Positions 17,103 to 20,175 of a DNA stretch of 64,000 nucleotides are shown in pieces. The translations under genes and the position numbers were made by a program. Positions within the stretch are counted from its first letter, which is position 1; the number at the start of each line of letters is the position of its first letter. Origin of the DNA: a virus (taxonomy: Duplodnaviria; Heunggongvirae; Uroviricota; Caudoviricetes). The notes beneath the pieces were generated by a model. It saw only the letters and a list, made by a program, of their open reading frames with translations. It had not been told where the DNA came from and made no database searches. The stretch lies in IMG/VR virus record IMGVR_UViG_3300032167_000002, positions 338,312 to 402,311 of that record; one strand, 5' to 3'.

Positions 17103-19014
17103 CAATATTAGCCCTCCAAGAGTTCTCTTCAATGAACTTCTTTCTGGGCGTAACCGACTCTCCCATTAAACTCATAAATGTCTGCGCGACTGCTGCTGCG
17201 TCTTCCATAGTAATCTGTTTAAGAATACGAGTCTTAGCATTCATAACAGTTTCAGCCATTTCATCTGGGTCCATCTCACCTAAGCCTTTCATACGACCCA
17301 GCTCAAAAGATCTCTTCATACCAGCTCTAAATTCATTGAGCGCAGCATCATTTACGAGATACTTGATATTGGTACCATATGTTGCTTTATATAGAGGAGG
17401 TACTGCTGCATAAATATATCCCTTTTCAATAAGCTCGGGACAGAATTTCCAAATGAATGTAAGGAACAGGACTCGAATGTGGCTTCCGTCGACATCAGCA
17501 TCCGCGGTGATAATAATCTTGCCATATCTCAGCTTAGATTCATCAACGATAACCTTACCATCTTTAACTTCCAAACCGAAGGCGTCAATCATACCGCTAA
17601 TTTCCTTATTCTGAAGAGCCTTATGTAAATCAGTTTTCAAAACATTCAAAATCTTACCACGAAGCTGGAAAACAGCCTGGGTATTGCGGTCACGAGCTTC
17701 GATTGTAGTACCGGCAGCGGATTTACCCTCAACGAGGAATACTTCACAGAGGTGACGATCCTTAGAGTTGGCATCACTCAATACATCAGGTAAGAGTACA
17801 CGCCGCTTATTATCGACCTTCCGCACGGTTTCCTTGGCTTTCTTTGCCTTTTCACGGGCCGCACGAGCCAGAAGAGCCTTATCTACGATTGCTTTGGCAT
17901 CTTTTGGATTTGCATCAAGCCAAACTTTAATTTCTCTTGCGGTCAATCGTTGTACTGCGGTACGAGCCTCACTACTGGAGAGAACATCCTTTGTCTGACC
18001 GGAGAAAACAGGGTCAGGCATAATGAAGGACAGGACAAGAACTAAACCTTCCTTCAATTCTTCACCAGTAATATTGGCATCTTTTTCTTTGAGTAGCTTT
18101 TTTTCACGAGCATACTCGTTGATTGTAGAAGTGAGCGCGGTTCTGAAACCGGTCAAGTGGGTTCCCGCACTATTGGGAATGGAGTTGGTATATAAGCGAT
18201 ACATATCAGTATAAGTATCATTATATTGCATAGCAATTTTTACACCAATTCTATCTTCCATACTTTCAGTATAGAATACAGAAGTTACTTTATTTTTACC
18301 ATCGTTTAGGTCATTAATGTAATCACGAATACCGTTTTGAGAAGTAATAGTTTCTTTAGTGTCTTTATAGTTTAGTTCAAATACTAAGCCAGGAGATAAG
18401 TAAGCTAACTCTTGGATTTGCTTCTTGAGAGGAGCGTATTCAAGCATAATGCCTTCTTTAAAAATGGTGGCATCTGGTTTAAACATAATAGCTGTGCCGG
18501 TAACTTTTTGATTGGGATCTTGTACTTCATTATATTTTAATAACTCGCCACGAGCAAATTCGGCTGTAGCCTTTTTACCGTCACGATAAGATACAACAGT
18601 AAAAATTTCAGACAATGCATTTGTTGCTTTAGCACCGACACCATTCATACCACCGGAGGTATTATAGCCAGTCTTGCCAGAGCTATCAAACTTTGCACCA
18701 GTATGAAGCTTGGTATAAACATTAACTAAAACTTCACTACCATCCTCAGCCTTGCCAAAAGGAACGCCACGACCATTGTCATGAATACAAATTACGCCAT
18801 CTTCTCCAACGTCAATGGTGCAATGAGTACAATGTCCATTTAAATATTCATCAACTGCATTAGAAATGATTTCGAGTGTGATGTGTCTGACACCTTCGGG
18901 TCCAACACTTCCGATATACATTCCCGCACGAAGACGAATTGCTTCAATTCCTTCCAAGGTTTTAATTTGATTAACGCCATATTCAGCATTATTTACATTG
19001 TTAGGTATTTCCAT
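17095..19014 (-). CDS. gyrB: Type IIA topoisomerase subunit B (GyrB/ParE-like); 639 aa, similar in size to Firmicutes GyrB.
   Basis: An ATPase domain (HITLEIISNAVDE) and a TOPRIM domain (EVFLVEGKSAAG) are present. Confidence 0.9.
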   Translation of the reverse strand: MEIPNNVNNAEYGVNQIKTLEGIEAIRLRAGMYIGSVGPEGVRHITLEIISNAVDEYLNGHCTHCTIDVGEDGVICIHDNGRGVPFGKAEDGSEVLVNVYTKLHTGAKFDSSGKTGYNTSGGMNGVGAKATNALSEIFTVVSYRDGKKATAEFARGELLKYNEVQDPNQKVTGTAIMFKPDATIFKEGIMLEYAPLKKQIQELAYLSPGLVFELNYKDTKETITSQNGIRDYINDLNDGKNKVTSVFYTESMEDRIGVKIAMQYNDTYTDMYRLYTNSIPNSAGTHLTGFRTALTSTINEYAREKKLLKEKDANITGEELKEGLVLVLSFIMPDPVFSGQTKDVLSSSEARTAVQRLTAREIKVWLDANPKDAKAIVDKALLARAAREKAKKAKETVRKVDNKRRVLLPDVLSDANSKDRHLCEVFLVEGKSAAGTTIEARDRNTQAVFQLRGKILNVLKTDLHKALQNKEISGMIDAFGLEVKDGKVIVDESKLRYGKIIITADADVDGSHIRVLFLTFIWKFCPELIEKGYIYAAVPPLYKATYGTNIKYLVNDAALNEFRAGMKRSFELGRMKGLGEMDPDEMAETVMNAKTRILKQITMEDAAAVAQTFMSLMGESVTPRKKFIEENSWRANIDV

Positions 19015-19745
19015 TTAAAACCTCCACATTTATTTCTTGAACCGTTACAAACTTTTGATATGGCACTTGCGTCGCAATTATTATCTGCGGCCGCACGTGC
19101 TACGCTATCATAAACTTGTAATTCTTCATTATTATCATTCATTTTTACAACTTTCCTACTGGATTTTGTAATTCTACTGGTTTGAGTTTTATTTACTTTT
19201 ATTTCAGGTTCAATTAAATTACCTTCTTCATCAGTAAATCTAAACACTCTACCTCCGGTGGTTAAACGTCGGCCATTGCACACATCACTAATCTTAAATC
19301 GGTCAAGACCCGTGTTTTCACCAGCTTCTGCTAACGAATTCCATGCTCCGACAATTTCTTTATTAGAAGAGATTTCACAAACTTTTTTACCATATTTAAC
19401 TCGTTTAGTATCACTCATTTTTTTTGCGATAGAGGGATCAAACATTGGGCTATCAGTTTTATCAGTCTGATTGTAGCCTTTTGGTTTTACACAATCTTCT
19501 TTTACAATCCAATTATGTTCGGCTTCAATCATCTCTTCCCAAGAAGGTAGAGTTTCAATAATCTCAAAAGTAAAATTATCAATACCGAACTCTCTAAAAG
19601 CAATCATTAAAGGATAATTATAATGATGGTCTTTCTCATTAATGGAAGCTTCTTTATGTTGTCTCCATCTGCGTTCAACTTCAATTGATGAACCAATATA
19701 GACCATTCCATTTTTTTGATTAGTTATTTTATAAATTTGATACAT
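18993..19745 (-). mobile_element. Free-standing GIY-YIG homing endonuclease.
   Basis: MYQIYKITNQKNGMVYIGSS...R...H matches the GIY-YIG motif. Its 3' end overlaps the gyrB-like start by 22 nt. Confidence 0.8.
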
Positions 19746-19842
19746 AGAAATTCACCTTACCTTTCTATTATATCATAAAAATTGATAAAAGTCAATTTTC
19801 CATTCCGGACCAATGCCGGGACGAAATCGGTGAAACTGACCC

Positions 19843-20175
19843 TTATTCCGCCAGTAGGTATGCGGCCGCAATTTTTTCTGCTTGGGACATTTTTTCAAGC
19901 CATTTGTCTCTTGCATAAATAAGACCACGACCAAAACTTAAAGAAGCGTCAAATAAATGTTTGGCTTGGAAAAGAACAATAACCTCTCGAACAGACAAAG
20001 AATATAACTCCAATGCTTGGGAAAATGATACATTTGGATAATATTTAGCATAATATTGTAATCTTCGTGGAAGTTCATACTGATGCTCAATACAATAATC
20101 TATCATACCAGGACGAAGTCTAATCGCTTCGATGCCTTCAAGCGTCTTTATGTCTTTTACGCCATAATCTGACAT
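19843..20175 (-). pseudogene. Chimeric ORF. Its first 24 codons duplicate, in diverged form, the gyrB-like N-terminus (MSDYGVKDIKTLEGIEAIRLRPGM versus EYGVNQIKTLEGIEAIRLRAGM); the rest is unrelated. It is probably a homing or recombination footprint.
   Basis: The two copies match closely at the protein level but carry many synonymous nucleotide differences. A GC-rich structured segment at 19790-19860 overlaps the ORF's 3' end. Confidence 0.45.

Follow-up and report, generated by a model that had tools for sequence, protein, structure and literature searches.

A Probable Homing-Endonuclease Cassette in Phage gyrB That Brings a Replacement Gene Start

Introduction

In fungal mitochondria, hybrid genes formed by mobile open reading frames (mORFs) are known for atp6 of Allomyces macrogynus and for atp6, atp9, cox2 and nad3 of Glomus sp. 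(PMC3630166; PMC7487136, PMC6279837), where the endonuclease open reading frame (ORF) carries a foreign C-terminus that displaces the native one (PMC3630166). Free-standing GIY-YIG endonucleases of T4-like phages, SegB, SegF and SegG among others, move by intronless homing with co-conversion (PMC2988022, PMC2330249), and endonuclease insertions that split phage genes are represented by mobE in nrdA of Aeh1, mobA in the T4 topoisomerase gene 39/60 and seg43(25) in gene 43 (PMC2988022). The locus considered here is the gyrB region of a virus of the Caudoviricetes, which lies in a stretch of 64,000 nucleotides (nt) covering positions 338,312 to 402,311 of IMG/VR record IMGVR_UViG_3300032167_000002 (hereafter the window). 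Its gyrB has two 5' ends, one on each side of a GIY-YIG endonuclease gene, and it is quite probable that positions 18919..20103 (1185 bp) form a homing-endonuclease cassette that sits between gyrB codons 24 and 25 and rebuilds the gyrB start; the steps of homing, founding join and endonuclease loss that are set out below are included in this estimate.

The closest known analogue would be the fungal mitochondrial mORF hybrid, of which the phage case looks like the N-terminal mirror image. In both, an endonuclease ORF (LAGLIDADG or GIY-YIG in mORFs) lies within a conserved gene, a foreign terminus replaces the native one in the product, and the displaced native terminus persists as a nearby duplicate. 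When tested, the displaced 5' end (copy 1) proved nearer to the gyrB of the endonuclease-free relative L001 (62/66 bases) than to the replacement (copy 2; 48/66), and the endonuclease gene and the foreign copy 2 run without a break into a full-length gyrB ORF, a hybrid that is known here from sequence. The comparison also confirmed a difference, in that the replacement is C-terminal in an organelle gene for mORFs and N-terminal in a phage gene here. Because the N-terminus is replaced, the phage cassette must supply a ribosome-binding site (RBS) and a start codon too. Moreover, the displaced piece keeps its promoter, RBS and ATG, which would be used for a passenger protein, and the host is a phage of roughly 190 kb with gyrB as the target instead of a mitochondrion.

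In the Seg systems, as at this locus, the GIY-YIG gene is free-standing, is served by its own promoter and has an RNA structure predicted close by; presence/absence polymorphism, co-conversion of flanking markers and mosaic boundaries at the nuclease gene are shared as well. The Seg genes, however, are intergenic and home without a duplicated segment, whereas the present gene lies inside coding sequence and is compensated by a duplicate 5' end. Gene-splitting insertions also occur among relatives of the window phage, where a second GIY-YIG gene splits gyrB (L091). These leave genes in pieces whose products reassemble, whereas nothing is split at the gyrB codon 24/25 site and a complete GyrB is encoded downstream. 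With I-TevI, the endonuclease of the T4 td intron (PDB 1MK0, 1LN0), the window endonuclease shares the catalytic domain and the modular C-terminal DNA-binding motifs, but it is not intron-encoded, and its C-terminal domain is of the NUMOD / I-HmuI type, with two swapped variants among the cassettes. No phage case of terminus replacement was found in the literature searched, and the T4 review (PMC2988022) does not contain the word 'duplicat'.

Origin of the Two gyrB Starts

All features of the region, gyrB, the endonuclease gene and a 110-residue ORF (ORF110), are on the minus strand. Copy 1 (20104..20175) consists of an ATG and 23 codons, MSDYGVKDIKTLEGIEAIRLRPGM, and opens ORF110. Copy 2 (18919..19011) comprises codons 2–32 of the present gyrB, of which codons 11–32 (18919-18984, peptide EYGVNQIKTLEGIEAIRLRAGM) repeat codons 3–24 of ORF110 at 18/22 residues and 48/66 bases. 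The similarity ends exactly past the ATG of 'GM', and the next codon of the native gene, codon 25 (Y), begins at 18918. A preliminary description of this DNA had noted 24 codons of gyrB type duplicated upstream of the GIY-YIG gene and richer in third-position G or C, and both points are confirmed (8/22 in copy 1, 5/22 in copy 2); it also located the downstream partner, at 18925-18990, which has to be corrected to 18919-18984.

Annotated phages are of little help in tracing the two copies. Phages in GenBank gave no DNA match to 17000-20400, a tblastn search with ORF110 matched residues 2–24 only, in gyrB/topoisomerase II genes, and the best GyrB protein match was 42%, so that no annotated relative is usable. 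A scan of IMG/VR with the GyrB protein yielded 80 loci, mostly on phage contigs of about 110–200 kb. The endonuclease-free gyrB genes of L001, L018, L020 and L042–44 begin with the copy 1 peptide (100% amino acid identity), and copy 1 equals L001 at 62/66 bases. DNA homology to the promoter, leader and copy 1 of the window stops exactly at 20104 in about 50 loci (over 20257-20104, L001 is 87.7% identical and L004/L005 89.7%), which places the left insertion junction at 20104/20103. Copy 2, on the other hand, equals the gyrB of L003, another endonuclease-linked locus, at 66/66 bases; the runner-up matches (L088, L002 and L093, 53–54/66) are all cassette-linked, and the best endonuclease-free allele reaches only 52/66. 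Since each copy matches different relatives, copy 1 is the resident 5' end left behind and copy 2 the import. The preliminary description had proposed homing with co-conversion that brought in an endonuclease together with the 5' end of a donor gyrB, and had asked for a comparison of both copies with gyrB of related phages; the comparison supports that proposal and reverses the roles, as the downstream copy, then taken for the true N-terminus, is the imported one and the upstream copy the displaced original.

The insertion site is inside a near-invariant motif of gyrB, RPGM/YIGS (the slash marks the insertion point), and the junction GGTATG/ATAGA is identical in the window, L085, L091 and L093. 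The empty site of the L001 type reads ...CGTCCTGGTATGTATATCGG... and ...ATTCGACTACGTCCTGGTATGTATATCGGTTCAGTTGG..., and its counterpart in copy 2 of the window reads ...CGTGCGGGAATGTATATCGG..., with RAGM where the consensus has RPGM. None of the endonuclease-linked copies has the consensus RPGM/YIGS; they read RAGM, YVGS or FIGS, while 51/77 unlinked copies have the consensus. Such substitutions in copy 2 would probably confer immunity to the cassette's own endonuclease.

The rebuilt gyrB (17095..19014) encodes 639 amino acids and matches the Pfam families HATPase_c, DNA_gyraseB, Toprim and GyrB_C. Its translation start (19012..19025) is borne by the cassette and lies within the last endonuclease codons: GGAGG at 19021-19025 is followed after 6 nt by the ATG at 19012-19014, and the predicted N-terminus is MEIPNNVNNAEYGV.... 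The GGAGG and start are also kept in L003, L088, L095 and L093, and with TTG as the start codon in L034 and L045. Downstream of copy 2, an L003-like tract with sparse mismatches (18836..18918) has been co-converted, and the rest of the gene (17095..18835) has a resident-type backbone, for the most part nearer to L001 than to L003.

The GIY-YIG Endonuclease

The endonuclease gene (18993..19745) encodes 250 amino acids and matches Pfam GIY-YIG (PF01541) with E=1.6e-13 and 51.2 bits, compared with a cutoff of 22.6. Two further stretches match the NUMOD-like family of I-HmuI (PF22083, E=3.8e-12) and constitute a separate C-terminal DNA-binding module with two motifs; the PHROG match is likewise a homing endonuclease. 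The catalytic domain aligns to I-TevI (1MK0, E=7e-9) over residues 4–97. The segments IY, VYIGS, RRWRQH, EAEHNW and GYN fall at I-TevI positions in such a way as to conserve two Tyr, Arg, His, Glu and Asn, which we take to be the catalytic residues. The gene is intact and its product I-TevI-like. The ratio of nonsynonymous to synonymous substitution rates (dN/dS) is 0.14–0.18 among the endonucleases of the window, L093, L091, L034 and L002, and 0.22–0.23 against L045. The endonucleases of the cassettes are of two C-terminal types, each tied to its own type of copy 2, which either starts with ATG and reads MEIPNN... or starts with TTG and reads SEEILLKKG...FIGS.

Mobility and Mosaicism

The element is present or absent at one site in related phages and is accompanied by co-conversion of its flank, as seen for L034 against L036, L035, L032 and L077 and for the window against L001 and L003. 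From 19117 to the end of copy 2, the window matches L003 at 98–100% and differs from it at four positions as far as 18899; further mismatches fall at 18898, 18883, 18877, 18868, 18856 and 18843 and become dense beyond 18835. In a sliding comparison, identity to L003 falls to 46–80% past about 18836, and the rest of gyrB is put at only about 60–80% identity to it, while identity to L001 rises. The pattern is that of a cassette set into a different backbone together with 80 bp of co-converted gyrB. The comparison with L091 is similarly uneven, with 93–96% identity in the ORF110 tail and 98–100% in the spacer against 40–66% in the upstream flank. The flanks of L034 are 95–100% identical on both sides to L036, L035, L032 and L077, all four of which are without the roughly 975-bp element, and just downstream of the junction the identity dips to 76–86%, again a mark of co-conversion. 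The L034 and L091 elements themselves share 88–100% identity, against only 32–58% in the flanks. L077, which has the converted tract and the end of copy 1 in common with L034, looks like an allele from which the element was removed when one copy recombined with the other.

The same architecture occurs in independent ENA, Logan and IMG/VR assemblies of other samples (L034, L091 and L093), and the arrangement is not an assembly artefact. Accordingly, the least likely of the explanations considered, that the duplication arose by replication slippage in situ or as an assembly chimera unrelated to the endonuclease, has nothing beyond the repeat's existence in its favor and a negligible probability, as the architecture recurs in these assemblies and the copies differ at 18/66 bases, each with a different closest relative; the occupied and empty sites of L034 and its relatives refute it too. 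The event footprint recognized in the preliminary description therefore stands, but not as a one-off; the loci form a recurrent mosaic cassette family that is apparently still mobile and has repeatedly lost its endonuclease. In P0025 (alignment A1), copy 1 begins MEISVNNNTEYGV, an N-terminus of the cassette (copy-2-like) type, and this suggests that an already converted allele was invaded a second time.

The strongest competing explanation is a frozen relic, in which a single ancient insertion, now immobile, has been inherited vertically and reshuffled by general phage recombination. As a single origin would predict, every tail-bearing locus has the same left junction; endonuclease loss is frequent, and the activity of the enzyme is itself predicted from sequence. 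An immobile relic is nevertheless unlikely. The endonuclease ORFs are unbroken and evolve under purifying selection, and near-isogenic genomes differ by the element together with a local dip of co-conversion. Furthermore, cassette segments are 88–100% identical between genomes whose flanks are only 32–66% identical, and the copy 1 sequences track the resident lineages.

Cassette Variants and Endonuclease Loss

The full layout of copy 1 with tail, endonuclease and gyrB is found in the window, L093 and L091, and in L034 the tail is internally deleted, so that FVATCLLDK* follows copy 1 instead of IAAAYLLAE*. In L088, L095, P0009, P0014 and P0029 the endonuclease has been deleted, with the tail joined to the C-terminal NUMOD motif, and L088 and L095 keep the tail and the gyrB start without it. 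Their join is at a short repeat, TGCGGCCGCA, whose two partners bracket the endonuclease in the window, the left one (19861..19870) encoding Ala-Ala-Ala at the end of the tail and the right one (19086..19095) lying within the C-terminal NUMOD motif; the deletion end points coincide with these repeats. Copy 1 is mutated, decayed or largely deleted in P0005, P0016, P0027, P0029, L085 and L095, while the tail stays conserved.

The repeat belongs to a more general pattern, GCGGCCGCA, which occurs at four places in the window (19086-19095, 19861-19870, 28239-28248 and 38137-38145), three of them as the 10-bp palindrome TGCGGCCGCA. A scan of both strands for the pattern gave 7 matches, compared with 0.13 expected by chance, and each encodes Ala-Ala-Ala on the minus strand.

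A different rearrangement is seen in L085 (5001-7784), where copy 1 is decayed and the tail intact, and where a terminator-like hairpin and an RNase H gene separate the two from a gyrB of another type (MSNKNLYTEDSIQSL...). Here the gyrB module past the junction has been replaced wholesale. The same locus has a PhoH-like gene (670-3255) that is apparently split by a 314-residue ORF with a faint LAGLIDADG match and may be another endonuclease-interrupted gene of this phage group.

Within gyrB itself, a second, different GIY-YIG gene splits the coding sequence before GyrB_C in L091 (5297-8165) and also in L039–L050 and L076–L080. In these genes-in-pieces loci the GyrB match ends near residue 577–583, whereas the gyrB of the window is unsplit there. 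In L072 (6001-8183) and L067 (3083-5898) the span of the GyrB match exceeds the gene length by about 290 bp and about 900 bp, respectively, which suggests further insertions within gyrB.

The phage group also appears to use TAG recoding in a subset of its genes. Six frames of the window are open only if TAG is a sense codon, three on the plus strand (20362-22452, 22238-23059 and 25736-27214) and three on the minus strand (9220-10236, 23826-25748 and 27633-30254); one example has 697 codons with 11 in-frame TAG, whereas gyrB, the endonuclease gene and ORF110 have none. In the L045 endonuclease (5219-5968) TAG takes the place of a Gln codon, CAG or CAA, of the window and L034, and in the L091 tail (4001-4354) that of a codon which is TGG in other loci.

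The Passenger Protein and the Spacer

ORF110 (19843..20175, with the stop codon at 19843-19845) continues in frame from copy 1 into a tail of 86 codons plus stop (19843..20103), here called Y. The preliminary description had regarded the sequence after codon 24 as unrelated; it is instead a conserved coding domain. A protein search with the 86 residues found 30 clusters of 72–97% identity, mostly of about 110 amino acids (91–133, with one fragment of 53), and all 30 start with a gyrB N-terminal fragment of varying native type that is often mutated or partly deleted. The invariant columns of their alignment fall in the tail and not in the gyrB fragment, and pairwise dN/dS of the tail is 0.09–0.17 among six loci, with synonymous divergence (dS) up to >1. 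A profile search of 1.8 billion representatives yielded 62 clusters, most of them free-standing proteins of 85–100 amino acids and a few C-terminal domains of larger proteins, which add only weak SH3_15-like repeats. The tail had no match in Pfam or PHROGs, a Foldseek search of the PDB gave none with E<5, and an IMG/VR scan with the tail alignment gave no matches; the AlphaFold2 model is all-helical with a mean predicted local distance difference test (pLDDT) score of 68. The tail is a conserved small-protein family under purifying selection, and we conclude that Y is a small gene, nearly complete but for a few codons at its beginning, whose expression would come from its in-frame fusion to the displaced start of gyrB.

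The fusion could also be the point of the duplication, if ORF110 were a GyrB-related regulator in which the retained N-terminal arm targets Y to the gyrase ATPase dimer. Copy 1 of the window is 100% identical to native N-termini at the protein level, the tail is under purifying selection, and in L100 a gyrB of another type has a free-standing Y homologue immediately upstream, all of which would fit such a role. The arm, however, is mutated or largely deleted in many family members whose tail is still conserved, and most Y homologues are free-standing, lack a GyrB segment and are not beside gyrB, which makes the regulator very unlikely. In L096, where an endonuclease beside the free-standing Y was looked for and none was found, a repetitive 1.2-kb stretch without called genes (2405-3669) lies 3' of Y, and its translation gives periodic YTYTYK-like strings.

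Between Y and the endonuclease is a conserved intergenic module of 97 nt (19746..19842) with a GC-rich predicted hairpin, the endonuclease promoter and an RBS (AAGGTGA). The promoter-like site (19767-19795, TTGACT-17-TATAAT, 11/12) is the best promoter match of the region, and the hairpin (about 19785-19846) overlaps its -35 element. The module is 98–100% identical in L091, L093 and L002. Between the window and these three loci the same identity extends over 19600-19836, a block made up of the spacer, the promoter of the endonuclease and its first 48 codons. The proportion of synonymous differences (pS) is 0–0.08 there, compared with 0.6–0.68 in adjacent cassette parts; recent module exchange or constraint at the DNA level could account for this. 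The GC-rich segment had been described as structured, but its predicted hairpin is not significantly more stable than shuffled sequences (z = -1.67); the variants of L034 and L093 are one-sided and break some pairs, so that covariation does not support a structured RNA. An operator mimic or homing-site relic was rejected as well, since the 14/17 local alignment to L036 is reached by 29–35 of 500 shuffles. The segment could have a regulatory role, but neither the predicted structure nor the homing-site resemblance has statistical support.

Splicing and Related Explanations

If the insert were a self-splicing intron, of group I or another kind, between 20104 and 18918, copy 1 would be exon 1 and the endonuclease would be intron-encoded. 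Insertion within a highly conserved coding motif, the resemblance of the endonuclease to the intron-encoded I-TevI and the frame of copy 1, which would join codon 25 in phase, are all as an intron would have them. A group I intron had been named in the preliminary description as the finding that would overturn homing; it was searched for with Rfam and not found, leaving the homing reading in place. Rfam gave no match at E<=10 on both strands of 18500-20600 and none at the gathering threshold in L034, L091 and L093, and the Intron_gpI covariance model did not detect a group I catalytic core (P3–P9) in any of these sequences. The layout is also not that of a group I intron, with non-coding sequence on both sides of the ORF and single-copy exons: only about 97 nt of the insert are non-coding, none of it 3' of the endonuclease, whose stop overlaps the gyrB ATG, and the upstream exon-like segment recurs on the downstream side. 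Nor would an intron be expected to harbor a repeat of exon 1 that is conserved at the protein level and equipped with a GGAGG and an ATG. Moreover, the derivatives without endonuclease retain the gyrB start of the cassette, the terminator-like hairpin and RNase H gene of L085 stand between copy 1 with tail and gyrB, and copy 1 is decayed or deleted in many relatives with an intact gyrB. An intron is therefore highly improbable, even more so than the regulator.

Two related candidates were rejected. An intein or split intein, which would begin with Cys, Ser or Thr, end in His-Asn plus a nucleophile and be in frame with both exteins, does not fit an insert that starts IDYC after GM and ends with a stop, with the N-extein repeated downstream and no Hint/intein match in Pfam, and translational bypass as in T4 gene 60 would have to cross a gap of 1185 nt to a downstream copy that has its own start.

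Proposed Mechanism

Read in the 5' to 3' direction, the proposed homing-endonuclease cassette consists of Y without its own start, the intergenic module with a sigma-70-type promoter, the endonuclease, and a GGAGG and ATG with 32 codons of gyrB. Upstream, the resident gyrB promoter-like site (20219..20247, TTGATT-17-TATAAT, TG-extended, 10/12 match, sigma-70-type) lies in sequence collinear with that preceding gyrB in endonuclease-free relatives and now precedes ORF110, with an AGGAG RBS 5' of the ATG (20175). ORF110 and the endonuclease gene thus each have their own promoter-like site, and gyrB has its own GGAGG and ATG. Y would depend on the stranded promoter, RBS and opening 24 codons of the resident gyrB, with which it shares a frame as ORF110, and because the cassette brings a replacement start, gyrB is whole as a full-length hybrid that requires no intron or intein.

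The endonuclease is expected to cut gyrB alleles that lack it, at codon 24/25 or close by. Of the two broken ends, the left would then pair with a co-infecting donor's copy 1 and the right with sequence downstream of copy 2, and repair synthesis would copy the 1185-bp insert, co-converting about 80–200 bp of gyrB. After invasion, gyrB would be translated from the cassette-borne start on transcripts of the resident and endonuclease promoters and Y from the resident start. The element was probably founded when a broken gyrB was joined illegitimately to a donor laid out as Y, endonuclease and gyrB, for which the free-standing Y directly upstream of gyrB in L100 offers a possible model. Later, deletion between short repeats would repeatedly have removed the endonuclease, with Y and the rebuilt start remaining.

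Several observations weigh against this scheme. The endonuclease of L045 and L049 is 62% identical; in these loci the tail is different and the left junction falls after resident gyrB codon 4, so that not all insertions are at one site and the two represent an independent, related event. Both the cleavage target and the immunity of copy 2 are deduced by comparison of alleles, and because the target-motif variants are of only three types, the association of motif and immunity reflects few independent events. The founding donor, a free-standing Y with an endonuclease and a type-1 gyrB, was not found among the loci examined, and L100 has a gyrB of a different type with no endonuclease between it and Y. 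In 4/5 other contexts examined, free-standing Y is not beside gyrB but among small phage genes of unknown function. Lastly, the scheme does not account for the near-identity of 19600-19836 in cassettes that have otherwise diverged.

A broader reading, which is plausible but held tentatively and with clearly less confidence than the cassette itself, is that the element acts as a 'spliceless intron'. Being self-sufficient, it would invade the best-conserved coding motif of an essential phage gene without splicing of RNA or protein, supply its own promoter, RBS, start and 32 codons, and capture the orphaned signals of the resident gene for its cargo Y, a small-protein family not described before. 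In an arms race between the cassette and resistant gyrB alleles, the swapped DNA-binding modules and the substitutions in the target motif would be the record.

Conclusions

Besides introns and inteins, the cassette would represent a third way for a homing endonuclease to reside within an essential, conserved coding site, that is, by bringing a spare gene end along. This solution is known from fungal mitochondria at the 3' ends of genes, and here it would concern the 5' end of a gene in large gut and environmental phages, creating hybrid gyrB genes together with a cargo gene expressed by fusion. It would also explain an annotation trap, the 110-residue 'GyrB-like' ORF upstream of gyrB, and it draws attention to a conserved, uncharacterized family of small proteins (Y) that travels with the element. 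The occupied, empty and endonuclease-deleted loci provide a natural allele series for studying the life cycle of homing endonucleases, and the insertion site offers a candidate 20–40-bp gyrB target for a new I-TevI-like enzyme.

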